The notes under the pieces are model-generated. The model worked only from the letters and a program-made list of their open reading frames with translations, was not told the origin of the DNA and searched no databases. Both the position numbers and the translations under genes were made by a program. Shown piece by piece: positions 7,573 to 59,810 of a stretch of DNA of 64,000 nucleotides (positions are counted from its first letter, which is position 1; each line of letters starts with the position of its first letter). The stretch comes from an uncultured Chloroflexia bacterium (GTDB lineage: Bacteria > Chloroflexota > Dehalococcoidia > Dehalococcoidales > UBA2162). The stretch covers positions 16,748 to 80,747 of the forward strand of contig CAVUCA010000001.1 of assembly GCA_963739865.1 (NCBI GenBank), written 5' to 3'.

Positions 7573-7573
7573 C

Positions 7574-14075: not shown

Positions 14076-14121
14076 TCCGGTTTTTTCTTTATCTTTAATG
14101 TTATTCGTCCTTAACCATGAG

Positions 14122-30333: not shown

Positions 30334-30661
30334 AGATTTATCCTCCACAGACCAGCCTACGGAACGTAAGTCAAACCTGGCTGGGAGGATTCTACAACTG
30401 TAATGATGAACAATCTCTTAACTTCGTACCGGAAAATCTGAACATTGTCTGAATATTTTTAATCACCCTCTCCAGTAATCTGGAGAAGGAACTCTATCCT
30501 CGATGTAGACTGGAAAATTCATGGTAAGGCAGGTGTCCCGTCGGACGAAATCCAGCTATATCTACCCCCGGATCAAGTCCGGGGCAAACTTTTGGAAAAA
30601 GAAGAGGAACCCACGAAACAACCTGAAGCTAGTTTACAAGGTTTGTTGAAACAACCTCAGA

Positions 30662-33537: not shown

Positions 33538-35640
33538 GTGCCGTTAAGCAAGAAAATCTTAATTATCGTCGTCTCTTTGATCTTTCTATCGTTTCTCTTT
33601 ATTGGTTTGATAACCATCTTTATAATGAACAACAATTACCTTTCCCTGGAAAAACAAAGTGTGGAACGTAATGTCAGCCAGGTGATAAATTCCATCGATA
33701 CCATCAAGAACGACCTGGCGGTTAGTACCCCGGATTGGGCGCATTGGGACGATACCTATGAATTTGCCAGGGGCACCAATCCTACTTATATTGAGCGTAA
33801 TATCACGGAATCAACCTTCGAAAGCAACCAGATCAACCTCATTGTAATCCTTGACCGCGAACAAAATATCCTTTTCGAAAGAGCCTATGACTATCATGAA
33901 GAGACTGACGTAGTTATCTCTCCGGAATTGCAGGCTCTAATAACGGACCCTCTGGTAGCAATTCATAACGATGCGTCGCCAGGTACCACCGGCTTGTTAC
34001 AAACATCAGCAAATTTTCCCCTATTGGTTTCCGCCTATCCTATCCTTGACAGCCTGGGGCAAGGGCCCAACAGCGGCACCTTGATATTCGGCGTATTTCT
34101 GGATACCGCGGCCATCAATGAAATTGCCGACCTGACCATATCGGACGTCTCGCTTTACCTGGTGAATGATCCGGCATCGTCCGAAGAAATTTTGGTCGTC
34201 AAAGATTCGCTTACCACGGAAGAGCTTGTGGTTACCAGGCCCATCGACCGAAATAGTGTGGCCGGATATACGGTGATTAAAGATATTTTTAACCATCCTG
34301 CCATGATTTTAAAGGTAACCAGAAGCCGAGCTATTTACCAACAGGGACAAGCCACTTTCTTAGTATTCGGCTTGACCATGGCTGTTTCCAGTATTATTTT
34401 TGGTGTCCTGGAATTGTATATTTTAAGAAAGACCATTATGTCCCGTTTCAATATGATTTCCAGGGGGGTGAACTTTATCGGAGAGACGGGTGATATCTCG
34501 AAGCGTATCTCCATCGGCGGGACCGATGAACTACGCCACCTGGCAGATAACATCAATCATATGCTGGAAAAGATCACTGAAACGGAAAGTCAGCTCCGTT
34601 TTCAGAAGAAAAGATTCGACCGAATCCTCGAATTCAATCCTGCGGTGATTCTGATATTCGATGCGAATACGGTACTGCTTTCGGTGAACAAGGCATTTTG
34701 CACTCTTTACGATGTGAGGGAACATGATGCCGTGGGGAAAAATATAGCGGACTTTATACCTCAAGAAATAATAACCGGGATATCTCCTCTAGTTACTGAT
34801 GTCGAAGGCTCCGTATTCGACACGGAAATAAAACTACAAACCGGCGGCAAGGAAAGACTATTTAGCGTCACTATTATTACGCTATTTGCCGGGGAATATC
34901 TCCTCCTGGCCTGGGATATCACACAGCAGCGCCAGGACATGGACCGGATGTACCTGACCGACCGCTTAGCGACCATCGGCGAACTGACCTCCGGTATCGC
35001 TCATGAACTGAATAATCCGTTAACCAGCGTGATCGGGCTCTCCGGCTTAATGCTGGAAGCGGAATTACCAGTTGACATAAAAGAGGATTTACAAACAATA
35101 TACCAGGAAGCGAAACGTACTTCAGATATTGTGAAAAACATGCTGGCCTTCGCCCGTAATCACCCGGCGGCCAAGCAATCTATCGATGTGAATACCACAC
35201 TAATCAACACCCTGAATATGCGTACCTACGAACAGAATCTAAACAAGATCCAGGTAGTCAGGCAATTGGCGGAGAACTTACCACAAGTCAAGGCGGATGC
35301 TTTCCAGTTACAGCAAGTATTCCTGAATCTAGTAGTAAACGCAGAGTATTTTATGAGAGAAGCACACGGCGGCGGTTGTTTGATCGTAACAACCGAACAA
35401 GCAGCGAGTAATATCAAAATATCATTCCGTAATGACGGCCCGGAGATACCAGTAGAGATACAAAAGCATATTTTTGACCCCTTCTTTACCACGAAACCGG
35501 TGGGTAAAGGAACAGGTTTAGGATTGAGCATCAGTTACGGCATTATAACCGCACACAACGGCCGGATGTACGTAGAGAATCTACCGGGGAAAGGGGTTGT
35601 CTTTACCATCGAACTGCCAACAAACGGCAAGATGCACTAA
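33538..35640 (+). CDS. sensor histidine kinase (TM – large extracytoplasmic sensor domain – TM – HAMP – PAS – HisKA – HATPase_c)
   Basis: GTG start (weak SD); two TM segments flanking ~230-aa periplasmic region; HAMP (…RISIGGTDELRHLADNINHMLEKI); H-box ELTSGIAHELNNPLTSV; N/G boxes NLVVNAEYFM…DNGPEIP…FDPFFTTKPVGKGTGLGLSISYGII. Confidence 0.8.
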   Translation: MPLSKKILIIVVSLIFLSFLFIGLITIFIMNNNYLSLEKQSVERNVSQVINSIDTIKNDLAVSTPDWAHWDDTYEFARGTNPTYIERNITESTFESNQINLIVILDREQNILFERAYDYHEETDVVISPELQALITDPLVAIHNDASPGTTGLLQTSANFPLLVSAYPILDSLGQGPNSGTLIFGVFLDTAAINEIADLTISDVSLYLVNDPASSEEILVVKDSLTTEELVVTRPIDRNSVAGYTVIKDIFNHPAMILKVTRSRAIYQQGQATFLVFGLTMAVSSIIFGVLELYILRKTIMSRFNMISRGVNFIGETGDISKRISIGGTDELRHLADNINHMLEKITETESQLRFQKKRFDRILEFNPAVILIFDANTVLLSVNKAFCTLYDVREHDAVGKNIADFIPQEIITGISPLVTDVEGSVFDTEIKLQTGGKERLFSVTIITLFAGEYLLLAWDITQQRQDMDRMYLTDRLATIGELTSGIAHELNNPLTSVIGLSGLMLEAELPVDIKEDLQTIYQEAKRTSDIVKNMLAFARNHPAAKQSIDVNTTLINTLNMRTYEQNLNKIQVVRQLAENLPQVKADAFQLQQVFLNLVVNAEYFMREAHGGGCLIVTTEQAASNIKISFRNDGPEIPVEIQKHIFDPFFTTKPVGKGTGLGLSISYGIITAHNGRMYVENLPGKGVVFTIELPTNGKMH

Positions 35641-35646
35641 CCATGT

Positions 35647-36090
35647 TCAAGAAGCTGTCACCAGGCTATTAAGCTTGTGCAGCATATGTTTCAGATGGGT
35701 TTGCGACCGGGGACGGCGTATCAGCCCGGCGATCTGCCCGAGAATCCCGTAAGGCAACTTGATATGCTCCGTAATCGTGACTAAGGTCCCCGCCGGAGTG
35801 GGTTCCAGGGTATACCTTTGCTCATAACCTTGCACAAAATTTCCGGAGGTCATTTTAATGGCAACACTTTCATGCGGCACCCATTCGGTGACCACGAAGT
35901 GTAATTTCAGGAGAATCCCGCCAGCCTTTTCTTCGAAATAGAAAGAAGTCCCTAAACCACTATGCTGCGGGCTGGTATAGCGAAGGTTATTGATAGTAAG
36001 GCACCACTGCTGCATCTGCTCCAGGCTGACCAGGAAAGGCCAGACCTGCTCCGGTGATGCGGCTATTACAGTCGAACGATGGATTTTCAT
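35647..36090 (-). CDS. SRPBCC family protein (polyketide cyclase/Bet v1-like fold)
   Basis: 147 aa; MKIHRSTVIAASPEQVWPFLVSLEQMQQW… typical START/Bet v1 N-terminus. Confidence 0.7.
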   Translation of the reverse strand: MKIHRSTVIAASPEQVWPFLVSLEQMQQWCLTINNLRYTSPQHSGLGTSFYFEEKAGGILLKLHFVVTEWVPHESVAIKMTSGNFVQGYEQRYTLEPTPAGTLVTITEHIKLPYGILGQIAGLIRRPRSQTHLKHMLHKLNSLVTAS

Positions 36091-36295
36091 GATTAGTGTT
36101 ATTCTATCAGTTTCCGGAAGAAATGGAGAAAAATACAGCGTTTCTTTCCGGAAGTGCTACTTTAAACCATCCGGATGACCGCAGAAACGACCCTCTGCTT
36201 CAAGATAACCCTGACGATATCAGTAGTCGGTAATTTGACATTTTTCCGCTGCCGTGCAAAACTCTGGCCAGAATATTTTAGAGGAGTGAACTGCG

Positions 36296-36742
36296 ATCAA
36301 CCGGCAGCAATTCCTGGAATACGCCGACCATTTCAACAACAAACGGTGGGACAAAGTCGTCAGTTACTTCTGTCCGGATGTCACCGTGGAATATCCGGAC
36401 AATTTTCAGGGGGCGCAGATCCCCGGCCTGACCGGCAGAACGCTGCACGGACCGGCGGAGTTCATCGCCAACTACGAAACGATCACCGCTGATGTGCGTG
36501 AGGTGTTGAACGTGGGCGTTTTTCTTTCCCGGGGCCGGCATTTCTGTGTCGAACTGATCACCGAGTTCCACGTATTCCGGGATCCACCGGCAGGTTCGCC
36601 CCGGCAATGGAAGAAGGGTGATATCCTCATCCTGAACCAGAATGTCCTTTACGACCTGGATGAGCAAGGGAAGTTCAAGCGCATCCGCATCTTTCATCAC
36701 CGCCACCTCGACCCGGCGATACTCAAACAAAAAGCAAAATAA
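36296..36742 (+). CDS. SnoaL-like/NTF2-like domain protein (start codon uncertain)
   Basis: In-frame from stop at 36287: (TA)INRQQFLEYADHFNNKRWDKVVSYFCPDVTVEYPDNFQG…; SD GAGGAG at 36281-36286 but no ATG/GTG/TTG within 30 codons (ORF-track GTG 36386 would truncate the conserved N-terminus); possible start-region error; antisense ORF 36278-36748 rejected. Confidence 0.5.
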   Translation: MNRQQFLEYADHFNNKRWDKVVSYFCPDVTVEYPDNFQGAQIPGLTGRTLHGPAEFIANYETITADVREVLNVGVFLSRGRHFCVELITEFHVFRDPPAGSPRQWKKGDILILNQNVLYDLDEQGKFKRIRIFHHRHLDPAILKQKAK

Positions 36743-36994
36743 ACGCAAGTTTTACCGACTACTTTGGTGAGGCGTCGTTATTAGCTTCAACTTTACTAAA
36801 ACTTCTTTAGTATATCCTTCGGGTCAATCTATATCTTCTGCGCCGGTAGTTGTCGTGGGGCAGGAAATAACCGTTATCCCGATACACATGGGTATCCAGC
36901 GTCATCATCCATCCGGATTCAGCCGACAGCGGCCAACCAACACGATATTGGAGATCGTAGCCGGGAGTAGATACTGTGGAAACGGATCCCGCAG

Positions 36995-39139
36995 CTACGC
37001 CCGGGATGACATTTCAGGAATAGGCCTGATGTCATTCCGGACTAATATTGAAAAAGGCACTTTTATATCCGGATGATAGGATGGACCATTTTGGCATCCG
37101 GCCAGGAGCCGTAGTATTTCATCATATCTTCCGGCGGCTTTTTTTGCAGCCATGCTTTTTCGAATTCGGCGTAAGGCTGCGCTCGCGCTGAAACGGTCTT
37201 TACGTTCCGCCTGCCGCAGGGCTGCCGTCGGCTCTTCATCGGCCGTCCAGGTGGCGGCATCGTAAGCTACGTGGTATACATTTCGCGCTGCCCAATCCGA
37301 GATAATCTCATCCCGGATATCGTTAACGACCGCCTGCGGTTCCCGTTCCAGGACATCGCCGTAACCATAGCCGCCGGCCTGCGACCCGCCGCCCACCAGC
37401 GCCCCCTCATATAGCAATCCCTGGTTGCCTTCGGCGGGGAATTCTTGGATCACGTCCCGCTTGAGGACTTCCTCCGGGGTGGTGGGGATGTTCTTTTCGC
37501 CTTTGGCCATTAGTTCGAGGAGGTTGCTGCGGTTGATGCCAGCGCCCGGGGTGGGATATCCGGGATATCCGCCGAAAAGGCCCTGCCCCACGAGCATTCT
37601 GGCATGGTCTCCCCTACGTTCGACGTTGCCTTTGACATAAGGAACGCCGTAGACGACGCTGGCCATGTACCCGGAGGCGCCGCCGCGGAATTTGCCATGG
37701 CCGCAGCTATCTTTGCGGTGTTTCTGCCAGAGGTGGAAGACCGGTTCGTTGACTTCGGTCTCTTCGCCGTCGGTACCCGGGGCATGTACGGCGGAGCGGA
37801 AGACGGCGCTGTTCATGCCGTCCGAGTCCACTCGGCCGCCCTGCCCACCCGTGTTACGCGTCCATCCGCCGCCCCCGCTGACGAAGGGGACCCCCCACTG
37901 GTTGATGCCCGAGCCGATGCCGCCGCCACCCCCACCACCGCCCCCGGAAATGCCGTTGATGGGCGCAGCAATCTCATATTTATCATCACTGGAGAACATC
38001 ATAGAAGCGAATATCTTGGGCAGCAGTTCGTTATTCAGTTCGCCCACGGGCGGGGCCAGCGAGATGGCCGCATCCCAGTTCGGGCTGATGATAGTGCCGT
38101 CCGGGATCTTGAAATCCACGGGAACCAAGGTCCCGGAACATACCGGCAGGTCCCAGAAGCCGTGGGAATACATGTGCAGGGCAGCGTAGCAGACAATGAC
38201 CCAGGGCATGCAGTTCCAGGCGGTATCGGTTTCGGGAGAAGTGCCGGTATAATCGAACAAGATATGGTCGCCTTTTTTATAAGCGGTACAATATATGCGC
38301 CACAATCCCGGGTACGGCCCTACCCCGCCGTTGAAACAGATATTACGGTAGATGCCGTCATGCCAGCGGCTGATCCTTAGTTTAGCGCCTTCCTCAGACA
38401 CGATAAGGATGCGGCGCAGCAAACCGAGGATGAAGCCGCCGCCCTTTTCATCGGCTAACTGCTGGATGCGCGTACGCAGCCGGTCGGCGGCGGTAACTCT
38501 CCCCTTCAGGTCCAGTAATTGCTGCCGGGGGGCGCGGGAAATGAAATTCACCATCATCTCCACGAGGTCATCCTTGAGGATATAGTTTTCGGCGATCTTG
38601 ATGGGAGTCAAGCTCATCCCTTCGTCATAGCGGCTCTTTGCACCGGGAATCATACCGCCGGGCATGGTACCGCCGGTTTCAGCGATATGCGTACCGGCGG
38701 AGGCCCAGGCGATGAGTTCCCCTTTATGGAAGATGGGCATCAACGCCAGTTGGTCGCAGTTATGTATGCCGCCGTAGGTAGCTTCGCTAGCATAAAAGAT
38801 GTCGCCTTCGTGGACGCCGACGCCGGGATTATTTTTGAAATTACGCATGATCCATTTGATGGGGTTCTGGGCTGTGACGCTGTGGATAAAAGTGCCCAGG
38901 CAAGCACCCACGAGATCGCCCTGGGCGGTATGCAGCCCGACGATGAGGTCGCCGCCGATGATCCAGTCCGAATTACCCACTTTCATGAATACTTCCTTGC
39001 ATTCGGCGAGGATCATGGTCAACCGCTGGCTGCAGATCTCATAATCGCCAGGTTGCAGCAGCTTAAGGCCTTCTGCTTCCTCATTGGTGATGGGATCGGG
39101 TTTCAGAAATGCCATGACTTCATTTTTTGACGGCCGCAT
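36995..39139 (-). CDS. hydantoinase B/oxoprolinase family protein (HyuB-like; acetone/acetophenone carboxylase catalytic-subunit type) with Gly-rich insertion
   Basis: 714 aa; family-typical motifs (…DPITNEEAEGLKLL…NSDWIIGGDL…HGFWDLPVCSGT…); unusual insertion ISGGGGGGGGGIGSGINQWGVPFVSGGGGWTRNTGGQGG. Confidence 0.85.
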   Translation of the reverse strand: MRPSKNEVMAFLKPDPITNEEAEGLKLLQPGDYEICSQRLTMILAECKEVFMKVGNSDWIIGGDLIVGLHTAQGDLVGACLGTFIHSVTAQNPIKWIMRNFKNNPGVGVHEGDIFYASEATYGGIHNCDQLALMPIFHKGELIAWASAGTHIAETGGTMPGGMIPGAKSRYDEGMSLTPIKIAENYILKDDLVEMMVNFISRAPRQQLLDLKGRVTAADRLRTRIQQLADEKGGGFILGLLRRILIVSEEGAKLRISRWHDGIYRNICFNGGVGPYPGLWRIYCTAYKKGDHILFDYTGTSPETDTAWNCMPWVIVCYAALHMYSHGFWDLPVCSGTLVPVDFKIPDGTIISPNWDAAISLAPPVGELNNELLPKIFASMMFSSDDKYEIAAPINGISGGGGGGGGGIGSGINQWGVPFVSGGGGWTRNTGGQGGRVDSDGMNSAVFRSAVHAPGTDGEETEVNEPVFHLWQKHRKDSCGHGKFRGGASGYMASVVYGVPYVKGNVERRGDHARMLVGQGLFGGYPGYPTPGAGINRSNLLELMAKGEKNIPTTPEEVLKRDVIQEFPAEGNQGLLYEGALVGGGSQAGGYGYGDVLEREPQAVVNDIRDEIISDWAARNVYHVAYDAATWTADEEPTAALRQAERKDRFSASAALRRIRKSMAAKKAAGRYDEILRLLAGCQNGPSYHPDIKVPFSILVRNDIRPIPEMSSRA

Positions 39140-39201
39140 ATTTTCCCTGCCTTTCGGTTATTTCCAGGAGACTTAATTTCCTGGAAATATGCCCATTTTT
39201 C

Positions 39202-41376
39202 CTATTCGATGATGCCGCTGCGGTATTCATTCATCCGGAATGTCCGGCCCGGGGGGATGACGGTATTGGTATCCGGGGATTCGATGATGACGGGCCCTTC
39301 CAGGACATTGCCCGGTTCGAGCAGGTCCTGTTCGTAAAGGGGGGTGGGTTGATACCGCCCTGTTTCCTCCCAGAAAGCTTCCCGCTGCCCTTTATAAGCG
39401 GCAGCCGGGGGTTTAGCACTTTTAAGTGTCAACCTGGGAATTTCGAATTTCGGTGTCACGTAGCAGGACTTGAGGATAAATGAAGAAATATCGACACCGC
39501 CCTGGGGATATACTGCCAGGGGGCTGTAGGCTTCGCTGTATTCTTTTTCGAACTGCCGGTAGACTGCCTGAGCATCGTCCAGGTTTTTCATGAATAGGCG
39601 GGGCGAGGAGACCCGTTTCATATTCAATTGCCCGCCGTAACGCATTTCCAGTTCCAGGGTAAAAATGGCCTTTTCGGCGGAAATGCCCTGGCCGACCAGG
39701 TCGCGCACGGCCCGTTTTTGCAATTCCAGGACGACTTCGTTAAAGCTTTCGAAATCAGCGGCATATTCCAGCGAACCCGGTTTAATCAAGGGCAGGTGCC
39801 GGGACATTTCGTAAAACTGCACCATGTCCATCACGGCCGAGCCCAGGGCACAGAAAACCGGGGAATTAGGGAAGGTGACGACGCGGGGGACACCGGTGCC
39901 GAAGGAATAGCCGCAGCAGTGGGTAGGCCCACCCCCGCCGAAAGCGAAGACGACAAACTCTTTGGGATCGTAACCCCGAAGGACGGTCTCCTTAAAAATC
40001 TCGCCGCCCATATTGCCGTCGACTACTTTTTTGATCAGCCGGGCAGCCTGTTCGACATCGACACCGAGCGGCCGGGCGATTTTCTCTTTGATGGCATTGA
40101 TGGCTTTCTCACGGTCAAGTTTGATCTTACCACCGTGGAAATAGTCCGGGTTAAGGTAACCCAGAACCACATCGGCATCGGTGACGGTCGGTTCCGTTCC
40201 GCCCAGGTCGTAACAAGCCGGCCCGGGCATGGAACCGGCACTTTGCGGCCCAACCTCCAGTTGATTCCCCAGGATAGGATTGATGCGGGCGATGGAACCG
40301 CCGCCCGCCCCGATGGAGCGGGACTCGAGCATGGTGATCTCGACGCCCCAGCGGTCGATCACCGGCCGGAACTGGTAGAAGTTAGGGCTGCCGTTCACGA
40401 CCAGGCCCAGGTCGAAACTGGTGCCGCCGACGTCGGTGGCAACGATATTCCGATATCCTTGCATTTTACCGAGATAGCCGGCCCCGATAATACCGGCGAC
40501 CGGCCCGCCGTTATATGTATTCAAAGCCGTGGTGCGGAATACTTCCGCCATGCCGCCGCTGTTATGTACCATCATCATGGCCCGTTTATATCCCGAACTC
40601 CGCAGCTCATCGCTCATGCCCTTCAATTCATCGGACATGGAACGCTGAAGATAGGCGCTGAGCATGGTGGCGACCATACGGGGGTATTCCCGCCAGCGCG
40701 GCAGTACTTCACTGGAGAGAACGACCAGCATACTGCCCAGGTAACATTCGGGATACTGCCGCCGCACCAGGTCGCGGATCTGCTGTTCATGCAGCGGATT
40801 AGCATAGCTGTTGATGAGGCAAATCACAAAACCCTGGGCGCCCTGGTTTACCAGGTAACGGAGTTTTGCCAGGGTATCTTCTTCATCCAGCGGCCGGATA
40901 ACCTTGCCGTTGGCGGCGACCCTTTCTTTCACGCCCACGATCATATGGCGGGGGATGACGGGCACCGGTTTGTTCATACGGGGCAGGTTACGCATCTCGC
41001 TGATGGGAATGCCGTCGCCCCACGAACCACCCCGGCCGGCTGACAGGGTATCCTCGAAACCCTCCGTGGTAAACAGGCCGAGGCGCGGCCCTTTCCGTTC
41101 GATGAGCCGGTTGATGGCCATGGTAGTGGAATAGAGGATCATTTCCGTGGAATCCAGGAGTTCCTCCAGGGGAATATCAAGCAAAGCCACGGTTTCCCGC
41201 AGGGCCTGCATGAAACCTTTCGACAGGTCGTAGCCGGTGGTAGGGGCTTTTCCCGAAACGATTTTGTCGTTATAAATAATAACGCAATCGGTAAAAGTGC
41301 CCCCGATATCCACGTTGATGCTGGCGCGCTGTTTTACCATGTTCGTACTATCTGTTTGTTGCCTGGACTGGGTCAT
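39202..41376 (-). CDS. hydantoinase A/oxoprolinase family protein (HyuA-like; N-terminal ASKHA ATPase fold)
   Basis: 724 aa; INVDIGGTFTDCVII…ATDVGGTSFDLGLVVNG… (two ATPase nucleotide-binding motifs); SD GAGGAGGG. Confidence 0.85.
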   Translation of the reverse strand: MTQSRQQTDSTNMVKQRASINVDIGGTFTDCVIIYNDKIVSGKAPTTGYDLSKGFMQALRETVALLDIPLEELLDSTEMILYSTTMAINRLIERKGPRLGLFTTEGFEDTLSAGRGGSWGDGIPISEMRNLPRMNKPVPVIPRHMIVGVKERVAANGKVIRPLDEEDTLAKLRYLVNQGAQGFVICLINSYANPLHEQQIRDLVRRQYPECYLGSMLVVLSSEVLPRWREYPRMVATMLSAYLQRSMSDELKGMSDELRSSGYKRAMMMVHNSGGMAEVFRTTALNTYNGGPVAGIIGAGYLGKMQGYRNIVATDVGGTSFDLGLVVNGSPNFYQFRPVIDRWGVEITMLESRSIGAGGGSIARINPILGNQLEVGPQSAGSMPGPACYDLGGTEPTVTDADVVLGYLNPDYFHGGKIKLDREKAINAIKEKIARPLGVDVEQAARLIKKVVDGNMGGEIFKETVLRGYDPKEFVVFAFGGGGPTHCCGYSFGTGVPRVVTFPNSPVFCALGSAVMDMVQFYEMSRHLPLIKPGSLEYAADFESFNEVVLELQKRAVRDLVGQGISAEKAIFTLELEMRYGGQLNMKRVSSPRLFMKNLDDAQAVYRQFEKEYSEAYSPLAVYPQGGVDISSFILKSCYVTPKFEIPRLTLKSAKPPAAAYKGQREAFWEETGRYQPTPLYEQDLLEPGNVLEGPVIIESPDTNTVIPPGRTFRMNEYRSGIIE

Positions 41377-41426
41377 GTTCCCTCCTCATCCCAAACGGTC
41401 AAATTAGATTCCGTGGGGCAGGTGGT

Positions 41427-41759
41427 TTATTCGGCCGCATATTTCGCTTTCAGCTTGTCTACATCCAGTTCAATGTCATAGGTAACAGGGTGCCCGGGCG
41501 GCAAAACTTCATTTTCCACCATGACGGCGCAAACCGGGCAATAGAATTCGATGATGCGGCAGAGTTCCGGGTCGGGGGCAAAGCTGTTGTCGGGTAGGAC
41601 GGGGTTATAGACGGTGCGGGGGTCCCGGTCGTAGACCAGGCAGCCTTTCTTATAATTCTCCCGGGCAGAAATTAACTCACGGCCGCAGCGGTTGCAGCAC
41701 CATTTTTCGGTGTCCAGGTCGATGTCCAGGTATTCCGTAATCCGTATTTTTCGTCCCAT
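41427..41759 (-). CDS. acetone-carboxylase gamma-subunit-like small zinc-ribbon protein
   Basis: 110 aa with CCNRCGRE…CPVCAV (CxxC…CxxC), size and position between two HyuA-like genes as in apcB/acxC. Confidence 0.65.
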   Translation of the reverse strand: MGRKIRITEYLDIDLDTEKWCCNRCGRELISARENYKKGCLVYDRDPRTVYNPVLPDNSFAPDPELCRIIEFYCPVCAVMVENEVLPPGHPVTYDIELDVDKLKAKYAAE

Positions 41760-41762
41760 GGC

Positions 41763-43808
41763 TTACTCCAATTCCATCAATCCGTTGAGATATTTATCCA
41801 CGGTATATCTACTACCGGGCGGCACAATGATGGTGGTATGAGGGCTTTCGATAAAAGCCGGCCCCTTAATCACATTACCGCACGCCAGCTTGCCTTCGTC
41901 ATAGAGTGGGGTGGATTGGGGTTCCCCGTGGAAATATGCCGTCCGCCGGCCTTTTAGTGCTGGTCCCGGGTTTTCCCCCGCCTCAGCGTACACGGTGAAT
42001 TCGGGATCCGCCAGGTGGCAGGATGCCTTAAGGCGGAATTCCCGTACCGTGATTTTATGGTTTTTTTCACATGCAGTTGCCCGGTCCCGGTAAAGGTCCA
42101 ACAGGCCTGTAACATCAGCGTTATCCCGGAGCTGCAGCAGTGGCCATCTAACCGGGGTTAAGGCTGGTACACCTTCCGAAATCATCATTAATTCCAGGAC
42201 AAGCGAGACCCTGGTTTTCTCGAAGCCTTCCCCTTCCATGTCGAAATAAGCATCCGCCTGTATCTGCCGGACAATTTTGTTAAACTCCTCGCGCACCGCT
42301 TCCCCGGTTCCGGTCAATTCCAGGTTGGCGACAGTACTGTAATTATGTAGAATGTCGGTACACGAAGAGCCGAAGGCACAGAACTGGGCACCGAAGCGGA
42401 AAAAGCGGATTTTACCGATCCCGGCGGCCCGGGCGATACCCGGACACAACAGGCCGCCGCTACCGCCGAAAGCAAACATTTCCAGTTTTTCAGGATCGAT
42501 AGCTTTCTCGGTGGTGAATTTAGTTACCAGGCCGGCACAATTCCGGGTGATAACATCAAGTGCCATTTCAGCGGCTTTAGCCTCGGTAGTTTTAAGAGGG
42601 TCAGCCAGGCGACGTTTTACGGCCGCCCGAGCTTTCGCCGTATCCAGTTTGCGGCGGCCGCCCAGGAAATAGTCGGGGTCGATATAACCAAGGGTAACCC
42701 AGGCGTCAGTAGTACAGGCATTAGTGCCGCCCAGGCCGAAACAAGCCGGCCCGGGGATGCCGCCCATACTTTCCGGCCCGGCGGTCAATTTTCCGTCGCG
42801 GCCTACTTTCATCACTGAGGAACCGCCGCCTCCGATAGAGACGGTCTCGATGGCTGATTCTCTCACGGGAACACCGCCCAGGTCTTTTTCGCGGGTGTAA
42901 GCCGGTTCTCCACGGGCGATGATACCCACATCCGTACTGGTGCCCCCGATATCGACGGTAACCACGTTTTCAAGGCCGTATTTCCGGGCCAGGAAAGCGG
43001 CGCCGAAAAGCCCGGCGGCCGGTCCGGAATCACAGGTGTCGATAGCTTTGGTCTTAGCGACACGGCACACGCCGCCGGTGGCATGGACAATCAGCAGGGG
43101 CCATTTGAAGCGGTTGTTCCTGAGATCATCATCGGCTTTGTAAAGATAATGTGCCATATCCTGGTGGATATAGGCGTCGATGAGGGCGGCGTTGGTGCGA
43201 TAAAAGTCATCGATCTCGGTGCTGATCTCGGTGGAGAGTAATAAAGGCACAGTGCCCAGGTAATGGGCCGGGTAGTTGGCGAGGACAATTTCCCGGACCA
43301 ATTTTTCATGAGCCGGATTCAGCGGCGAGCGGGCGAGACTCACCACGATGCGGCGGGCGCCCCTTTCCAACAAATCCTTCACGGCCGCCAAAACTTCAGT
43401 GCTTGAAGGCGGTTTGACCGGGACGCCGTGTTCGTCCATCTCTTCAGCGATGCCGACCACCATGTCTTTGGGAACCAGGAAATCAACGGCCGGATTAGTC
43501 GCTTCCGGCGGGGCATAAGCATTGATGCCAATTCCCCCGGTTACCAACAGGCCTAACTTGGGGCCGGACTTGTTGATGAGGGCATTGGTACCGATGGTTG
43601 TGGAAAGGCGTACCGTGTCCGTGTGCGGTAGTAAACGGCTGGCAGATTCATAGCCTAATTTTTTTGCCGCTTCCTGGATACATTCCATGAAACACAGGGT
43701 CAGGTCGTGAGGTGTAGTCGGTACTTTTACCAGTTCGATTTTTCCGTTGCCGTGTACAAAACCGTCGGTAAAAGTCCCCCCGGTGTCGATATCGATGCTG
43801 TATCCCAT
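41763..43808 (-). CDS. hydantoinase A/oxoprolinase family protein (second HyuA-like paralogue)
   Basis: 681 aa; MGYSIDIDTGGTFTDGFV…VTVDIGGTSTDVGIIARG…; SD GAGGGGGG. Confidence 0.85.
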   Translation of the reverse strand: MGYSIDIDTGGTFTDGFVHGNGKIELVKVPTTPHDLTLCFMECIQEAAKKLGYESASRLLPHTDTVRLSTTIGTNALINKSGPKLGLLVTGGIGINAYAPPEATNPAVDFLVPKDMVVGIAEEMDEHGVPVKPPSSTEVLAAVKDLLERGARRIVVSLARSPLNPAHEKLVREIVLANYPAHYLGTVPLLLSTEISTEIDDFYRTNAALIDAYIHQDMAHYLYKADDDLRNNRFKWPLLIVHATGGVCRVAKTKAIDTCDSGPAAGLFGAAFLARKYGLENVVTVDIGGTSTDVGIIARGEPAYTREKDLGGVPVRESAIETVSIGGGGSSVMKVGRDGKLTAGPESMGGIPGPACFGLGGTNACTTDAWVTLGYIDPDYFLGGRRKLDTAKARAAVKRRLADPLKTTEAKAAEMALDVITRNCAGLVTKFTTEKAIDPEKLEMFAFGGSGGLLCPGIARAAGIGKIRFFRFGAQFCAFGSSCTDILHNYSTVANLELTGTGEAVREEFNKIVRQIQADAYFDMEGEGFEKTRVSLVLELMMISEGVPALTPVRWPLLQLRDNADVTGLLDLYRDRATACEKNHKITVREFRLKASCHLADPEFTVYAEAGENPGPALKGRRTAYFHGEPQSTPLYDEGKLACGNVIKGPAFIESPHTTIIVPPGSRYTVDKYLNGLMELE

Positions 43809-43860
43809 GTTCCCCCCTCATTGGATATGCCGGATAAACACCTGAAACCTGTTAATATAT

Positions 43861-44865
43861 TTAACTTGAGTTAATTAACCTGGCTATTTCCTGTATGGTT
43901 TCCACACCGGCAGTATAAGGTATTTCACCATCCGTAGTAATAAACCAGCCCCGCCGGTTATCCGACATCGGAATATCAGCGAGGGTTACGGCATCAGCCG
44001 GTTTATCAAGTACTGCTGTGGGGATGTTAAGGCCGCAGCAAATCTTACGGCCAGCAGCGGCCTGCTGCACAGCAGCACCGTCCACATCAGTACCCAATGA
44101 TACGCCGTCAGACTGCAAATCGATGACCGGGCGGATATTGTCCGGAGTACAACCCGGAGTCAGCAGCAGCGACCGCACATTATAAAAGCGGACGACATTC
44201 CAGATACTCTTCAACGGGGCGGCGGCGGACGTGAGGCTGGATGCATCCAGAGAACCCAACATTCCGTCGTTGATTACGACCACATCTGCCCCGAGTTCAC
44301 AGTAGGTGCGGCACAATTTAAGGCCGATGCTGCCGGCGGCGGCAATAACCTTGATGGCCTCAGCTTTGCCCTGCCGTAAATCTACCGCCAGATTTTCACC
44401 ATATAAGTGCCGGGCCAGGGTAAACGGCCCGGTAACCATACCGAGCAAGGCTATCTGTTTACCTCTCAGGATGTTGATCCTTTTGAAAGCCTCGATACAA
44501 ACGGGCAGCCGGCCTCGCTTTTCCAGGCCGGGAATATCTATCTTTTCCATACCGGTACCGCCAGGAAAAGGATGACTGACTACCTGTGGTAAAGCATCCC
44601 CGTTGTCCGGCCAGGAAACCTCACAGCCGCAAGCTTCGGCTTCCAGGCTGGGATCAAAAACGACGGTGATAGCGTCGTAGCTGAACAACTCCTGGGCGTT
44701 TAATAGAGCAGTGGATAGTAAACCGGGTTCTGATAGCATGTCCACAACGGGAAACTGTTCCAGTTTGGCGGCAAAGGTGCATACCCAGGGAAGGAAAGGA
44801 AGGCGGGGCAGGTCTTTCAACAGGAAAAGGTCTTTGACCAGCGCTTTTGAAGATATATCAGTCAT
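43861..44865 (-). CDS. uroporphyrinogen decarboxylase (URO-D) family protein (MtaA/CmuA-like methyltransferase/decarboxylase fold)
   Basis: 334 aa; overall match to PF01208-type architecture (…VTGPFTLARHLYG…GADVVVINDGMLG…); first gene of the minus-strand cluster. Confidence 0.75.
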   Translation of the reverse strand: MTDISSKALVKDLFLLKDLPRLPFLPWVCTFAAKLEQFPVVDMLSEPGLLSTALLNAQELFSYDAITVVFDPSLEAEACGCEVSWPDNGDALPQVVSHPFPGGTGMEKIDIPGLEKRGRLPVCIEAFKRINILRGKQIALLGMVTGPFTLARHLYGENLAVDLRQGKAEAIKVIAAAGSIGLKLCRTYCELGADVVVINDGMLGSLDASSLTSAAAPLKSIWNVVRFYNVRSLLLTPGCTPDNIRPVIDLQSDGVSLGTDVDGAAVQQAAAGRKICCGLNIPTAVLDKPADAVTLADIPMSDNRRGWFITTDGEIPYTAGVETIQEIARLINSS

Positions 44866-45081
44866 GGTGCCGTTATATTAACGCTTCATTGATTCCGATT
44901 CAAGCGATGCGGCAAGGGGTGCAGCTTGATTTGATACCCACATCGGGGGCAGCCCCGGTATTTTACCCGGTGGCCGGTAAGCCGTATAATCCCGTTAGCT
45001 TAAACAATTATCCTCAACATGGCAGCATTATTTACTACTGACAACGATGTTGCGAAGTACTTTAGTTAGAGGAGGACAATC

Positions 45082-45937
45082 ATGGTGGCAAGTGAAACGA
45101 AAGTAATCATGGACGGGTTGATTTTCCCGGAATGTGCCGCGCTGGCATGATGGCCGGCTCTGGTTTTCCGACATGCTGGACCGCAAGGTGATCGTCATCA
45201 ATCCCGACGGTAAGCCTGAGGTAGTGGCCGAGGTACCGGGGCAGCCGGGGGGCCTGGGGTGGCTGCCGGACGGCCGGCTGCTGATCGTCTCGATGTTCGA
45301 CCAGCGCCTGCTGCGGCTGGAGGCTGGTAGCCTGACAACGGCGGCCGACCTGAGCAAAATAGCGAGAGGGAACCTCAATGATATGGTGGTGGATGTGCGG
45401 GGCCGGGCGTATATCGGGGATTGGGGCTTTGTGGGGGCACGCCCGAAGGACCACGTGACCACGGGAGATGTGATGCTGGTAACCCCCGAGGGGAAAGCCC
45501 GGGTCGTTTCGGATCAATTACAGTTCCCGAACGGGGCGGTAATCACGGCAGATAACAAGACTTTGATCGTTGCCGATTCTTATGGTTATAACCTGTCGGC
45601 ATTCGATATCCGGAGTGACGGGACACTGACGAATTACCGTGTCTGGGCGGACATGGGAAAAACGGTGATCCCGGATGGGATCTGCCTGGATGCCGAAGGA
45701 GCGGTTTGGGTGACCAATTCGGCCGGCAATGACGTAATCCGGGTAAAAGAAGGCGGCGAGGTTTTGGGCAGGGTCACGGTTACCTCCCGGGCTTATGCCT
45801 GTATGCTGGGCGGCCCGGATAGAAACCTGCTGTACCTGACGACGGCAGCACCGGGCATGTTCGCCGACCTGAAAGACAAACGCAGCGGGCGCATCGAAGT
45901 GATTCCGGTAGAGGTACCGGGCGCCGGGCTGCCGTAA
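45082..45937 (+). CDS. SMP-30/gluconolactonase/LRE family protein; frame interrupted once at ~45136
   Basis: ATG 45082 with SD GAGGAGG; MVASETKVIMDGLIFPEC|PRWHDGRLWFSDMLDRKVIVINPDG… restores the canonical …F.PE.PRW…G.L.FSD motif if the extra G at ~45136 is removed; ORF track shows only the downstream part (45134-45937). Confidence 0.7.
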
Positions 45938-45983
45938 AGAATCCGGGTTAAATATTTTAATTACAGGACTTCAGGGGAGGGCT

Positions 45984-47333
45984 ATGTTTACCAGGGAATT
46001 AGTTAAATTCATCCATAAGACGGAATATAAAGACTTACCGGTTGAGGTGGTCAAGGCGGCCAAACCGGCGATACTCGACCTGCTCGGAGTGGCGATCGCG
46101 GGCAGTCAAGAACCGTCCGGGAAAATAATTGGTGAGATGGTCAAACAAACGAAGTCTATCCCGGAGGCGACCGTTATCGGGGGTGGGTTCAAGGCTAGCT
46201 GCAGCGCGGCCGCCCTGGCCAATGCCACCGCCGGCCATGTGCTGGACTGGGACGACTGCCTGGACTTCCCGGACGTGGGGCTGGCGCATCCCACGACCAG
46301 TATCATCCCGGCCGTCCTGGCACTAGGCGAAAAATTACATATTTCCGGGAAAGACCTGATTACGGCATATGTCCTGGGATTGGAAGTCTATGCTAAGATC
46401 GGGCTGCTGCGGCGGAAAGCCTACCATTCCGGCTCCGGGTGGGAGTGGACGGGGGTGCTGGGGGTGATGGGGTCGGCGGCTGCAGTATCGAAAATACTGA
46501 AACTGGATGAGAAAAAGACGGAGATGGCGCTGGGTATCGCCGCTTCCTCCGCGGGCGGACTGACGCGGAATTTCGGCACCATGGCCGGGCATCTGCACTC
46601 CGGTAATGCCGCCCGCAACGGCATCGAAGCGGCGGTCCTGGCTGACATGGGCTACAACGGGGTGGAAAACGTCATCGAAGTACCTTCCGGATTTTATAAC
46701 CTTTTCGCCGGCACTGACGTCCCGCTGACGGACGAAGTGATGCGGGAAAACATCAATGCCCTGGGCAATCCCTGGAATATCATCGAGCCCGGGTTGATGT
46801 TCAAAGCTTTCCCCATCGCCCATATCAGCCATTTCGGGGTCGAGGCGGCTTTACAATTGAGAGAGAAATACCCGTTCGACTGGCAAAAAATCGAGGAGAT
46901 CGAATTCCGCATCCCTCCCTTCATCCAGCGGGCGGTCTGGTATAAGGACCCGCAAACGGGGATACAGGGCAAATTCGGCCTGGGCTATTGCCTGTGCCGC
47001 GCCCTGGTGCAGGGGAAGATCAATATCACCGATTTTACCGATACGGCGGTAAACGACCCGGCCATCCGGCAGTTGATGAGCAAGATCAAATGGGCCGGCC
47101 TTGAACAGGATGCCGGGGTGGGGCCGTTCGGCTGCCAGGAAATAGTACTGAAAATGAAGGACGGCAATACCTGCAACTGTAAGGTCGAACACCCGCGCGG
47201 CGAGCCGCAAAACCCGTTGACCCATGAACAATCAGAGGCCAAGTTCCGGGACTGTGCCCGACATGCCCATTACGAGGAAAAAAGAACCGCACAGATCCTG
47301 GAACTGGTGATGAACCTGGAGAAAGATGGATGA
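45984..47333 (+). CDS. MmgE/PrpD family protein (2-methylcitrate dehydratase-like)
   Basis: 449 aa with family-typical N-terminus MFTRELVKFIHKTEYKDLPVEVVKAAKPAILDLLGVAIAGS. Confidence 0.85.
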   Translation: MFTRELVKFIHKTEYKDLPVEVVKAAKPAILDLLGVAIAGSQEPSGKIIGEMVKQTKSIPEATVIGGGFKASCSAAALANATAGHVLDWDDCLDFPDVGLAHPTTSIIPAVLALGEKLHISGKDLITAYVLGLEVYAKIGLLRRKAYHSGSGWEWTGVLGVMGSAAAVSKILKLDEKKTEMALGIAASSAGGLTRNFGTMAGHLHSGNAARNGIEAAVLADMGYNGVENVIEVPSGFYNLFAGTDVPLTDEVMRENINALGNPWNIIEPGLMFKAFPIAHISHFGVEAALQLREKYPFDWQKIEEIEFRIPPFIQRAVWYKDPQTGIQGKFGLGYCLCRALVQGKINITDFTDTAVNDPAIRQLMSKIKWAGLEQDAGVGPFGCQEIVLKMKDGNTCNCKVEHPRGEPQNPLTHEQSEAKFRDCARHAHYEEKRTAQILELVMNLEKDG

Positions 47334-52398: not shown

Positions 52399-54251
52399 AT
52401 GTCACTGACTGGAGGTTACACCGGGAAAATTTTAAGGGTTGATCTCAGTACCGGCAAAATCACGACGGATACCCCGGACGAGGAGACCTACCGCAAGTTC
52501 CTGGGCGGAAACGGCCTGGGGTCAAAATACCTGTACGATGAGATTCCACGAGGTACGGAGTGGTCCGACCCGGATAATCTGCTTATGTTCATGGGAGGGC
52601 CGCTGTCCGGTACCCGGGTAAGCGGCTCCGGTACCTTCTCACTGGTCACCAAAGGTCCGATGACCAACATGGCCGGGCTATCGCAAGCCAACGGTTTTTT
52701 CGGGGCCTTTATGAAGTTTGCCGGCTTTGACGGCATCATCGTTAAGGGTAAAGCCGAACACTGGTCTTATCTTTATGTTCATGACGGCACCGCTGAAATT
52801 CGCGATGCCCGGCACCTGGCGGGGAAAGATACCTGGGAAACCGAAGATGCCGTAAAACAGGAAATCGGGAACCAGTGCAGCGTCTACACCATCGGCCCGG
52901 CGGGGGAGCACCTGGTGCGGTTTGCTGCGGTGATCGGGGACCACGGCCATGCTGCCGGACATAACGGCACGGGGGCGGTGATGGGCGTGAAAAAGCTGAA
53001 AGCCATCGTGGCCGAACGCGGCAAAGGGACGGTGAAAGTAGCCAATCCGGAACTTTTGGCAGAAAAAGCGACGGCCTTGATCGAAAATGCCATCAAACTG
53101 GACCCTATGCTGGAAAAGTGGGGCACCGCTTTTATTTTCCCGCGTATCTACCGGGGCGGGGCATTGCCGGTGAAAAATTACACGACTAATATCTTCCCGG
53201 AGCCGGAGCGGTTCGGCGGCGATGTTATCCGGACCAAGTTCAAAGTCACGACCACGACCTGCTGGGCGTGCCGCATGAGCCACTGCCGGATGACGGAAGT
53301 GACCGAAGGTCCGTATAAGGGGTTTGTCGGTGAAGAACCGGAATACGAAGGCCTGGCGGCGATGAGTTCGGTCATCGGCCAGGAAGACCCCGGGGCGGCC
53401 ATCATGTTAGCCAATCAGGTAGACCGCCTGGGCATGGACATCAACGAAAGCGGTTACCTGATCGGCTGGATCATGGAATGTTACGAGAAGGGCTGCTGAA
53501 GCAAAGCGACCTCGACGGCATGGAGATGAAGTGGGGCGATGCCGAGGCCACGCTCAAGATGCTGAAGAAGATCGCCAACCGGGAAGGCTGCGGCGATTTG
53601 TTCGGGGAGGGCGTGAAACGGGCGGCGGAGAAGGTGGGGGGAGAAGCCCTGGATTGTGCGATATTCACCAAAAAAGGGGCTTCGCCGCGCGGGCACGACC
53701 ACCGGGCGCGCTGGTCCGAACTTATCGATACCTGTTTATCCAATACCGGTACCGTGGAACTCAGCGGCGGCTTCCCGCACCCGGAGCAAGTCGGGCTGAC
53801 GCCCCTGCCGATGCAGGACCAGTTCAATGCTGTGGCGGTAGCGGTGATGAATGCCAAACTCAATGGGCGGCGGCAGTTCGAAGATTCTCTGGGCATCTGT
53901 TTCCTGGGGGCCCAGGACCTGCAGTTGCTTATCGATACCCTGAATGCTGCCACGGGATGGAATTTCGATATCCGTGAAGCCCTGGATGCCGGCCTGCGCA
54001 TCATAAATCAACTCCGGGTTTTTAATTTCCGGCACGGACTGAGTAAAGACCTGGAAGCACCTTCGGCCCGCTACGGTTCGGTCCCGGTCGACGGCCCGGC
54101 GCAGGGGAAAAATATCATGCCCTACTGGGAGGAGTTACGCAGTAAATACTACGCCCAGATGGGCTGGGACGCGGACACCGGCAAGCCGACCCGGGAAACC
54201 CTGGAAAAGTACGGCTTGGGGCATACTTTCTCAGAATTGAAAATACAATAA
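52399..54251 (+). CDS. aldehyde:ferredoxin oxidoreductase (AOR family), paralogue 3; frame interrupted once at ~53493
   Basis: ORFs 52399-53499 and 53478-54251 are N- and C-halves of one AOR: …IMECYEKG|LLKQSDLDGMEMKWGDAEA… is continuous if one C is restored in GGC(C)TGCTG; Cys motif TTTCWACRMSHC. Confidence 0.75.
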
Positions 54252-55303: not shown

Positions 55304-55419
55304 TAACTTCAACGCAACAAAATCTCCCGCCTTGATTGACATAAATCCCGGGTAAATCTAGAATGGGTGCCATGTTAAGGGTTAAATAATTGCGAATAAA
55401 CCGCAAGGAGTGTGGCGAC

Positions 55420-58243: not shown

Positions 58244-59810
58244 TTACCCGCCGAGGATAGCCTTCATATCTGCTTCCGGTGTAGAAATCGGTTTGATATT
58301 GAATTTCTCCACCAGGACCTTTAGGACGTTGGGCGAGATGAAGGCCGGCAGTGAAGGCCCCAGGTAGATATTCTTGATGCCCAGCGAAAGCAGGGTCAGC
58401 AGGATAGCCACGGCTTTCTGCTCATACCAGGAAAGGACCAGGGTCAGCGGCAGGTCGTTGACGCCGCACTTGAAAGCACCGGCCAGAGCCAGGGCGACCT
58501 GGATGGCCGAGTAAGCATCGTTGCACTGACCCATATCCATGATACGGGGCAGGCCGCCGATCTCACCGATATTCAGGTCGTTAAAGCGGTACTTGCCGCA
58601 GGCCAGGGTCAGTACCACGGTATCGGCCGGGGTTTTCTTGACGAAATCGGTATAGTAATTGCGACCGGGTTTGGCGCCGTCACAGCCGCCCACCAGGAAG
58701 AAGTGCTTGATGGCGCCGGATTTCACGGCGTCAATGACTTTATCGGCCACGCCCATGACGGTATTGCGGGCGAAGCCGGTGGTAACCTCGGTGCCGCCGT
58801 TGATGCCGGTGAATTGCTTGTCTTCCGGCCAGCCCCCAGCTCCAGGGCTTTCTTGATGACCGGGGAGAAGTCCTTCTTCCCGTTCTTTTCCGGGATATGC
58901 TGTACACCGGGATAGCCCACCACTGAGGTGGTAAAGATGCTATCGATATAGGATTTCCCGCGGCATCATGATGCAGTTGGTGGTAAAGAGGATCGGAGCA
59001 GGCAGATTGGCAGAATTCCTTCTGCTGGTTCTGCCAGGCGGTGCCGAAGTTGCCCTTGAGGTGGGGGTATTTCTTCAGTTCGGGATAGGCGTGGGCGGGC
59101 AGCATTTCGCCGTGGGTATAGATATTGATGCCTTTCCCTTTGCTCTGTTCCAGCAGCTCTTTCAGGTCGAGTAAATCATGGCCGGTGACGACGATGAAAG
59201 GCCCTTTTTCGACCTTCAAAGTGACTTTGGTAGGGACGGGATGCCCATAGGTGGAGGTATTGGCTTCATCCAGCAGGGCCATGCATTTCAGGTTGACCTG
59301 GCCGAATTCCATGATCAGGGACAACCACTCATCCACACTGTGATTCTCACCCACCGCCAGCAACCCCTTGTAGAACCAGCCCGAGACCTCAGGATCGTCT
59401 TTACCGAGGACATGGGCGTGCAAGGCATATGCCGCCATGCCTTTCAGGCCGAAGATGAGCGCCGAACGGAGCGAGGTCGTATCCGTCTCGCCGTGATACA
59501 GGGCTTCGGTGTCATAGTCGGCGCTGCCGCCGAGTTTCGCCTTCTCTTTGGCTACGGCCTCGCGGTATTCATCGATGCGGGCGGGGTCGAAGTCCACATT
59601 CGTCAGGGTGGCGAAGAGGGCCTCCATCACCAGGACATCGACTGCTTTCCCGGGTGATCTACCTTTGGCAGCCCGGGCCAGGCCGATCAGGGCCGCTACC
59701 AGTTGGTCTTGTTTATGGGCGACTTCCGGTTTCTTACTGCAGACACCGACCTTGGTACAACCGGTGCCCCCGGCAGTTTGTTCGCATTGAAAACAGAACA
59801 TTTCAGCCAT
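58244..59810 (-). CDS. hcp: hybrid-cluster protein / hydroxylamine reductase Hcp; frame interrupted twice (~58985 and ~58840; ORFs 58740-59810, 58723-58923, 58244-58756)
   Basis: [29 protein letters not shown] (N-terminal cubane Cys cluster), …[14 protein letters not shown] | …[30 protein letters not shown] | …[35 protein letters not shown]…; second shift lies in a C5 run (GGCCAGCCCCCAGC). Confidence 0.8.

Follow-up and report, generated by a model that had tools for sequence, protein, structure and literature searches.

The five-gene cluster

The stretch of DNA considered here, called the window throughout, is 64,000 nucleotides (nt) long and belongs to a 711-kb contig (CAVUCA010000001.1) of an uncultured member of the Dehalococcoidales (Chloroflexota). 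On its minus strand it carries five closely spaced genes resembling those of acetophenone carboxylase (Apc), headed by a gene for a protein of the uroporphyrinogen decarboxylase (URO-D) family. Our analysis identifies this URO-D-family protein as the fifth, or epsilon, subunit of the Apc-like cluster. All five genes had been recognized in an earlier note on this DNA, and all five are present with the expected Pfam domains.

The first gene (43861..44865) encodes the epsilon-like subunit, an ApcE homologue of 334 amino acids (aa) with a URO-D/MtaA-fold TIM barrel (Pfam URO-D, 78.6 bits). It is followed by the gene for the alpha'-like subunit (41763..43808; 681 aa; Hydant_A_N, Hydantoinase_A and Hydant_A_C domains), a second ASKHA kinase-type protein in the ApcA position, and by that for the small gamma-like Zn-ribbon subunit (41427..41759; 110 aa; Pfam Acetone_carb_G, 112 bits), a homologue of ApcB. 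The alpha-like subunit, the ApcC homologue proposed to phosphorylate the ketone, is encoded at 39202..41376 (724 aa; the same three Hydant_A-type domains as alpha'), and the beta-like subunit, the ApcD homologue (Pfam Hydantoinase_B), at 37063..39139 once a frameshift is repaired; the open reading frame (ORF) as called runs over 36995..39139 and encodes 714 aa. Read from epsilon through alpha', gamma and alpha to beta, the intergenic gaps are 52, 3, 50 and 62 nt.

The frameshift in the beta gene amounts to 1 nt near position 37187 and was seen both by tblastn with the homologue P0085 and by DNA comparison with the related locus L005, relative to which the window gene has one extra base. In the tblastn alignment, one frame covers residues 1-651 of beta, at 93% identity to P0085, and reaches ~37187. 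The C-terminal 41 residues (ARAQPYAEFEKAW...YYGSWPDAKMVHPIIRI), near-invariant across the family, lie in another frame, which ends at ~37063. The 714-aa length given in the earlier note is thus an artefact of the shifted frame, the intact protein being predicted at ~691 aa.

The core subunits are of the Apc type

The best NCBIfam matches follow the operon order: ApcA (475 bits, vs 438 for ApcC with the same alpha' protein), ApcB (159.7 bits), ApcC (826 bits) and ApcD (432 bits). This bears out the proposal that the gene order mirrors apcA-apcB-apcC-apcD. The closest solved relatives of alpha, beta and alpha' are all chains of the Apc core complex 5L9W. Alpha scored 785 bits against 5l9w_B and ~350 bits against acetone carboxylase (Acx), and for alpha' the scores were 411 bits with ApcC and 394 with ApcA. 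For beta, the values were 416 bits with 5l9w_A, 134 with AcxA, 82 with N-methylhydantoinase and 70 with caprolactamase, the scores against CapB, 6yra_B and N-methylhydantoinase covering 70-100 bits. Acetone carboxylase, caprolactamase and N-methylhydantoinase thus score 2-6x below the 5L9W chains.

The published signatures of the Apc family are a gamma subunit with four cysteines, ASKHA motifs, an R/KERiDsxG fingerprint present in alpha and not in alpha', and a Gly-rich beta; in length, the Apc-type gamma is ~50 aa shorter than the Acx gamma, and the HyuB-type subunit has ~670-690 aa (Weidenweber et al. 2017, PMC5214803). The window gamma has its four cysteines at C22, C25, C74 and C77 (CxxC at 22-25 and 74-77), and its 110 aa compare with the 128 positions of the ApcB model. 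The PHOSPHATE1/2 and ADENOSINE motifs read DIGGTFTD, DVGGT and GSMPGP in alpha, and DTGGTFTD, DIGGT and GGIPGP in alpha'. The K/RER fingerprint is found as KERVAANG in alpha and is absent from alpha' (AEEMDEHG), and beta carries Gly-rich segments. Gamma, alpha and alpha' therefore bear the signature motifs of the Apc type, the 110-aa gamma and the repaired beta of ~691 aa agree with its lengths, and the gene set and order alpha'-gamma-alpha-beta (apcABCD) are those of this type. Membership in the acetone carboxylase group (AcxABC) was considered and rejected, as the cluster has five genes including those for alpha' and epsilon and the Apc chains outscore Acx.

The URO-D-family protein is the epsilon subunit

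In the earlier note the URO-D association had no explanation and an apcE gene was thought to be missing. Both points are answered by the same observation: the URO-D-family protein is itself a homologue of ApcE, encoded first instead of last, so that the fifth subunit is in the cluster with its position permuted to upstream of alpha'. Among the NCBIfam models, the one for ApcE (NF042977, E 6.7e-13) is matched along with MtaA-family models, and the protein matches residues 20-239 to PDB entry 9fou_A ("Acetophenone carboxylase epsilon subunit") with an E-value of 2.9e-9. When an AlphaFold2 model of the protein (built with 34 homologues; pLDDT 92.6) was searched with Foldseek, it retrieved MtaA (4ay7, TM-score 0.85), 9FOU (E 4e-15, TM-score 0.78 on the target) and then a long list of UroD structures at TM-scores of ~0.8. 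Synteny agrees with these matches. The genuine ApcE fragment, compared by phmmer with the 5214 ORFs of the window and 83 loci, matched 42 of them, and every one was a URO-D-like ORF adjoining an Apc-like cluster, the window's included.

The same 206-residue ApcE fragment gave no Pfam URO-D match even at E<=1, and the link between ApcE and URO-D is therefore easily missed; it rests on intermediate sequences and on the predicted fold. Within the library searched, no paper was found that connects URO-D with acetophenone carboxylase or that describes 9FOU, which was released on 2025-12-24. In the 2017 study, ApcE was proven to be an essential subunit; epsilon was described as missing from some operons and as far more divergent than the other subunits, with close orthologues in Nevskia and Rubrobacter only, and no fold was assigned to it (PMC5214803).

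Within the well-conserved group of epsilons, D71, E75, E77, W85, R119, E125, R129, G146, P147, D194 and N223 are invariant or near-invariant, and Cys79, Cys81 and Cys189 are kept in Chloroflexota and deltaproteobacteria only. When epsilon is aligned by HMMER with the ApcE fragment, its D71, C79, C81, W85 and C189 are matched by P, V, V, Q and A. Aromatoleum ApcE is the only characterized epsilon, and the current proposal is that it acts as a trigger or as a channel-forming accessory. In the clade of the window and in most Apc-like operons, epsilon is a UroD/MtaA-type barrel in a good state of preservation, with an invariant polar cluster that Aromatoleum ApcE has partly lost. This raises the idea that epsilon could be the actual site of C-C bond formation, where a decarboxylase-type barrel would run in reverse on enol-phosphate and CO2; the substrate of the clade would then not be acetophenone. 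We regard this idea as speculative and rather unlikely.

Epsilon is a regular partner of Apc-like operons

To follow the distribution of epsilon, one genome per species was scanned with a beta-subunit alignment. This sampling is anchored on beta, so that it has no bias for or against epsilon, and it gave 79 loci from Dehalococcoidales/Chloroflexota, Bacillaceae, deltaproteobacteria, Solirubrobacterales, other Actinomycetota and other groups. The profile used to search these loci was derived from 81 URO-D-like homologues. An epsilon-like ORF was present in 50 of the 62 loci that could be classified (17 of the 79 could not). In 43 of them it lies directly after beta (30 strong and 13 weak matches), in three directly before alpha', and in four it is attached to a second Apc-like cluster or overlaps the end of beta. 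The 12 complete loci without epsilon are mostly from Solirubrobacterales. The epsilon-first order was seen only in L005, L006 and L012, together with L001, which was found via epsilon; all belong to the clade of the window.

The epsilons in the canonical position also pass the Pfam URO-D gathering score (L016 68, L019 69, L062 113, L014 93 and L050 31 bits) and show the same double match to the NCBIfam MtaA and ApcE models. The counts across loci and these matches together establish that the URO-D association is the rule for Apc-like operons. In some loci, further genes of the presumptive pathway are part of the row, with the order A-B-C-D-E-ligase-thiolase in L002 and L062 and A-B-C-D-CoA-transferase-thiolase-E in L085. 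Viewed from the epsilon side, linkage to complete Apc clusters is found mostly and not always: the homologue in L084 has a lone HyuA gene as neighbor, and that in L086 has no Apc gene within 9 kb. The family is small, with 68 matches at E<=1e-30 and 362 at E<=1e-10 among 1.84 billion cluster representatives.

A separate observation concerns Desulfomonilaceae, Syntrophaceae and other deltaproteobacterial metagenome-assembled genomes (MAGs) (L050, L051, L061, L044, L043), where two Apc-like clusters occur within 10-12 kb. The second cluster of L050, L051 and L061 is the closest of the sample to the genuine Aromatoleum Apc: its beta is 58% identical to ApcD, its alpha' keeps E248/K281 and its epsilon is the best ApcE match.

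The cluster belongs to a deep-branching clade

A neighbor-joining (NJ) tree was built from 85 beta sequences and ApcD (5l9w_A) and rooted on Xanthobacter AcxA (5svb_A); it covers beta only, has no bootstrap values and includes no hydantoinase sequences. In this tree, a long-stemmed monophyletic group unites the window with L001 and L005-L014 and is sister to all other Apc-like sequences of the sample, genuine ApcD included. Judged by its sequence, the cluster is thus a member of a deep-branching clade of Dehalococcoidales/Chloroflexota MAGs. Identity to the window beta is 88% for L005, 66% for L001, ~41% for other clades, 35.7% for ApcD and 27% for AcxA.

The HyuB phylogeny had been suggested as a check in the earlier note, and in the AcxA-rooted tree beta places with the ketone carboxylases on the side of ApcD and not of AcxA; the bit scores, 416-432 with ApcD, agree with a place on the Apc branch in this tree of carboxylases. 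The other check, conservation of the gamma ORF, also came out in favor of the ketone carboxylase reading, with gamma 76-88% identical in related clusters. Neither a placement with hydantoinases nor an unconserved gamma, the two outcomes said to speak against that reading, was found, and with 5L9W chains as best matches and both gamma and alpha' present, the cluster is of the Apc type and not a two-gene hydantoinase.

Many relatives have two tandem beta (HyuB-type) genes (L007, L008, L009, L010, L014, and also L026, L032 and L064). The alpha-beta-beta cluster of L008 lacks genes for alpha', gamma and epsilon, with 7.7 kb of upstream sequence present; L007 and L009 begin inside the alpha gene and are uninformative on upstream alpha', gamma or epsilon genes. 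The tandem-beta loci may represent a different subunit architecture within the clade of the window.

Substrate-site residues differ from those of acetophenone carboxylase

The residues proposed to form the substrate pocket of ApcC (L81, F281, N282, P285, I333, Q344 and T345) are I, Y, N, P, I, E and S in the window alpha, three of the seven being identical and four different. As a clue to the substrate this pocket was discarded, since its pattern, x-[FY]-N-P-I-[EQD]-[TS], is variable throughout the family and so has no diagnostic value. In alpha', the ApcA residues E248, D274 and K281 correspond to D260, D286 and D293. Almost every Apc-like alpha' protein has aspartate at position 281, and K281 is confined to the Aromatoleum-type subclade. 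Neither alpha nor alpha' of the window thus has the full set of residues proposed for the substrate site of acetophenone carboxylase. The substrate of the window enzyme is probably not acetophenone.

A probable five-subunit carboxylase and the alternatives

We consider it likely that the product of the region is a biotin-independent, ATP-dependent carboxylase of the Apc type with five subunits, the epsilon gene being placed first. The five proteins are homologous to the Apc subunits, the order of the four core genes is that of apcABCD, the genes are conserved in related clusters and epsilon has the expected fold. Carboxylase activity, subunit roles and stoichiometry would follow by analogy with the Aromatoleum aromaticum enzyme (PMC5214803). 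In such a scheme, alpha (ApcC-like) would phosphorylate the enol form of the ketone substrate at the expense of ATP, and alpha' (ApcA-like) would activate bicarbonate or perform a second step that depends on ATP. The dimeric core would be made of two beta subunits (ApcD-like), with gamma (ApcB-like) as a four-Cys zinc-binding structural subunit. The dissociable but essential epsilon (ApcE-like) would dock on the closed core, allowing the coupled reaction to yield a beta-keto acid.

Several points weigh against this reading. The scores of the five proteins, in the order A-B-C-D-E, are 475, 159.7, 826, 432 and 48.6 bits, with cutoffs of 1250, 250, 1500, 1500 and 450 bits in the NCBIfam equivalogs for acetophenone carboxylase proper (NF042960, NF042974-NF042977). 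All five fall far below these cutoffs, and the cluster is not orthologous to acetophenone carboxylase. The identity of beta to ApcD is only 35.7%, and the beta gene is frameshifted as assembled. Alpha' scores as well against ApcC as against ApcA, and it has an aspartate at the position of ApcA Lys281, the proposed bicarbonate site. No CoA ligase, CoA transferase or thiolase that would process a beta-keto acid was found in the window. Finally, the Apc branch has one characterized enzyme only, from which the activity is extrapolated (PMC5214803).

Some of these points would fit an Apc-like ATP-dependent enzyme that is no carboxylase, that is a kinase/hydrolase, a lactamase-type enzyme or a two-position phosphorylator, with epsilon as an accessory barrel. 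The alpha-like active-site motif of alpha' (DIGGTSTD), its missing ApcA Lys281 and its slight preference for ApcC (411 vs 394 bits) are all in line with such an enzyme, as are the sister position of the clade to all other sampled Apc-like enzymes, the lack of beta-keto-acid-processing genes nearby and the single characterized member of the branch. Yet the hydrolases of the family consist of alpha and beta only, and gamma, alpha' and epsilon are known from carboxylases alone (PMC5214803); the aspartate at 281, moreover, is near-universal in Apc-like alpha' proteins and not specific to this clade. We therefore judge an enzyme other than a carboxylase to be unlikely.

The frameshift in beta, which replaces the near-invariant C-terminus, could also mean that the cluster is a decaying pseudogene locus, non-functional in the host organism, and the window holds further split genes. 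The third of three AOR genes is divided between 52399-53499 and 53478-54251 (plus strand), overlapping ORFs in different frames. A hybrid-cluster (Prismane) protein is split on the minus strand into 58740-59810 and 58244-58756, the N-terminal part covering profile positions 1-271 and the C-terminal part 346-513. A radical SAM gene at 11422-13303 (minus strand) is possibly split as well, its N-terminal and core domains lying in separate adjacent ORFs. Taken with the beta frameshift, these split genes suggest either indel errors of the assembly or widespread pseudogenes. The occurrence of several unrelated cases in 64 kb points to assembly error: three to four unrelated split genes in this part of a 711-kb contig resemble assembly indels and not the decay of a single locus. 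The beta frameshift is one extra base within otherwise conserved sequence, and the remaining four genes of the cluster are full length and 71-92% identical to their L005 counterparts. Decay of the cluster is accordingly a quite improbable explanation.

The last alternative is the one implied by the earlier note, in which the URO-D protein would be an independent enzyme, an MtaA-type methyltransferase or a UroD-type decarboxylase acting before or after the carboxylase. The zinc site of MtaA is formed by His-x-Cys...Cys. Its LHIC motif aligns to TPGC in the window epsilon, with Pro237 in the place of the His, and position 239, a Cys in the window, differs among family members (C, P, R, F, A, S or T). 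Because this motif is not conserved, epsilon is not an MT2-type zinc methyltransferase. It reaches ~70 bits with the MtaA-family models, whose cutoffs are 235-600 bits (235-244 for the subfamilies). On the UroD side, the protein belongs to the Pfam URO-D superfamily (78.6 bits) and resembles UroD in fold (TM-score ~0.8), and no HemE model is among its NCBIfam matches. An independent enzyme would account for the strongest sequence and fold matches being to MtaA (4ay7, E 8.8e-13 by sequence, TM-score 0.85; NCBIfam models), for an invariant polar core (D71, E75, E77, W85, R119, E125, R129) that could be a ligand-binding site, and for the homologues in L086, away from any Apc cluster, and L084, beside the lone HyuA gene. 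It is nonetheless very improbable in view of the specific homology to ApcE, an essential subunit (PMC5214803), the operon linkage to Apc-like genes in Chloroflexota, Bacillaceae, deltaproteobacteria and Actinomycetota alike, the lack of the MtaA zinc ligands, the low MtaA-family scores and the finding that, of the window ORFs scanned, none showed a corrinoid-protein or B12-binding domain.

Neighborhood of the cluster

The intergenic region 44866..45133, defined by the ORF coordinates, separates the epsilon gene from a divergent row on the plus strand and is the presumed promoter region. Promoter and terminator scans gave no signal above shuffled expectation; sigma-70-like matches at 45056..45027 (minus strand) and 44962..44990 (plus strand) were no more frequent than in shuffled sequences. 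An Rfam scan of 35000-46000 found no family.

The divergent row consists of an SGL/SMP-30 gene, a PrpD gene, an AOR gene, a ThiS-like gene, a second AOR gene and the split third one. This confirms the SMP-30, PrpD and three AOR genes that had been read from the sequence, the third as two ORFs. These genes had been combined with the carboxylase into an anaerobic catabolic island. Only L005, syntenic with the window over the entire region, has this row too; it is absent from L001, L006, L012 and L014, so that comparison offers no support for a catabolic island beyond one close relative. With the row divergent and the SRPBCC gene cut off from the operon by a convergent gene, this reading is weakly supported. 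Pathway genes are rare in general: within the clade a ligase was found in L014 and L015 only, and any CoA ligase, CoA transferase or thiolase in six of 68 other loci.

Downstream of beta, SRPBCC and SnoaL-like proteins had been noted. The SRPBCC gene is there, on the minus strand at 36090..35647 (Pfam scan). The SnoaL-like gene that separates it from the operon lies on the opposite strand: it occupies ~36296..36742 on the plus strand and is convergent with the operon. Its match to SnoaL_2, at 24 bits, stays under the gathering score of 27; a homologue in L040 (L040:1164-1607) with 63% identity reaches 35 bits on the same model. No ATG, GTG or TTG is found where the L040 homologue starts, the first canonical start being 30 codons in, a sign of either a rare start codon or a further error in the sequence. 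A spurious 156-aa ORF at the same spot on the minus strand was rejected as the SnoaL-like gene and the plus-strand gene preferred, the 156-aa ORF having no Pfam or PDB matches and not being conserved. In L005, a 685-aa ORF (12149-14206, minus strand) lies between beta and the SRPBCC gene, where the window has the SnoaL-like gene, which makes this place a variable insertion point.

A second protein of the URO-D superfamily is encoded at 55390-56736 (plus strand; 448 aa), with its URO-D domain in the C-terminal half. It was not retained as an epsilon paralogue, as the two show no significant pairwise similarity (BLASTP E 0.56). Homologues of it occur near Apc-like clusters of the same clade, in L008 (~6072, minus strand), L014 (~1330, minus strand) and L015 (~1171, minus strand). 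The L008 copy is 37% identical and adjoins the alpha-beta-beta cluster on the opposite strand; those of L014 and L015 are 27% identical.

Farther away, a CoxM-like flavoprotein at 2752-5114 (minus strand) is apparently interrupted. A 506-aa ORF joins positions 2-115 of FAD_binding_5 to a GltD-like Fer4_20/Pyr_redox_2 module, and the remainder (FAD_binding_5 112-169 and CO_deh_flav_C) lies in two further downstream ORFs. Genes for a xanthine-dehydrogenase-type Mo subunit and a 2Fe-2S subunit (5119-8080) adjoin it. A 1753-aa protein encoded at 25087-30348 (minus strand), probably a large surface protein, combines beta-helix, fibronectin-III and CARDB domains; L005 has a segment with 58% identity.

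Comparison with known systems

The finding is largely ordinary, a known fifth subunit placed first. It is of modest interest in that the epsilons are URO-D-family barrels and far more widespread than was stated in 2017: we find epsilon in ~80% of the sampled Apc-like loci and in several phyla, whereas the view at that time was of a sporadic subunit with close orthologues in just two other genomes (PMC5214803). For annotation, URO-D-family genes beside HyuA, HyuB and gamma genes are to be read as Apc epsilon and not as uroporphyrinogen decarboxylases or methyltransferases. The conserved epsilon variants also offer residues for mutation to probe the role of epsilon. The clade of the window, made up of Dehalococcoidales MAGs, marks an uncharacterized ketone-activating enzyme that is probably anaerobic.

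Among the systems compared, the two-subunit hydantoinases, 5-oxoprolinases and caprolactamases (6YRA, 7HK5) have homologous HyuA- and HyuB-type subunits and no gamma, alpha' or epsilon. Acetone carboxylase AcxABC (5SVB, 5M45), of the same superfamily of ATP-dependent ketone carboxylases, shares homologous alpha, beta and gamma; it has three subunits, lacks alpha' and epsilon, and its gamma and catalytic subunit are longer. The methylcobalamin:coenzyme M methyltransferase MtaA/MT2 (4AY7) and UroD (PF01208) have a TIM barrel like that of epsilon (TM-scores 0.85 and ~0.8, respectively) and similarity in sequence, but the window epsilon does not conserve the His-x-Cys motif (P-G-C), reaches no equivalog and is operon-linked to Apc genes.

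The nearest system is Apc of Aromatoleum aromaticum EbN1 (5L9W, 9FOU; PMC5214803), which has the same five families and the same A-B-C-D order and agrees with the window cluster in the four cysteines of gamma, the ASKHA motifs, a K/RER fingerprint confined to alpha, the Gly-rich segments of beta and the URO-D fold of epsilon. Identity between the two is low (35.7% for beta), and no score comes near the equivalog cutoffs. The window epsilon passes the Pfam URO-D threshold and keeps D71, C79, C81 and W85, whereas the ApcE fragment has P, V, V and Q at these positions and gives no URO-D match; the window alpha' has D260 and D293 for E248 and K281 of ApcA, and four of the seven alpha pocket residues differ from those of Apc. 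Unlike in Apc, there is no bal-type ligase gene near the window cluster. The order E-A-B-C-D, in place of the A-B-C-D-E of the Apc prototype, is the sole architectural difference between the two.

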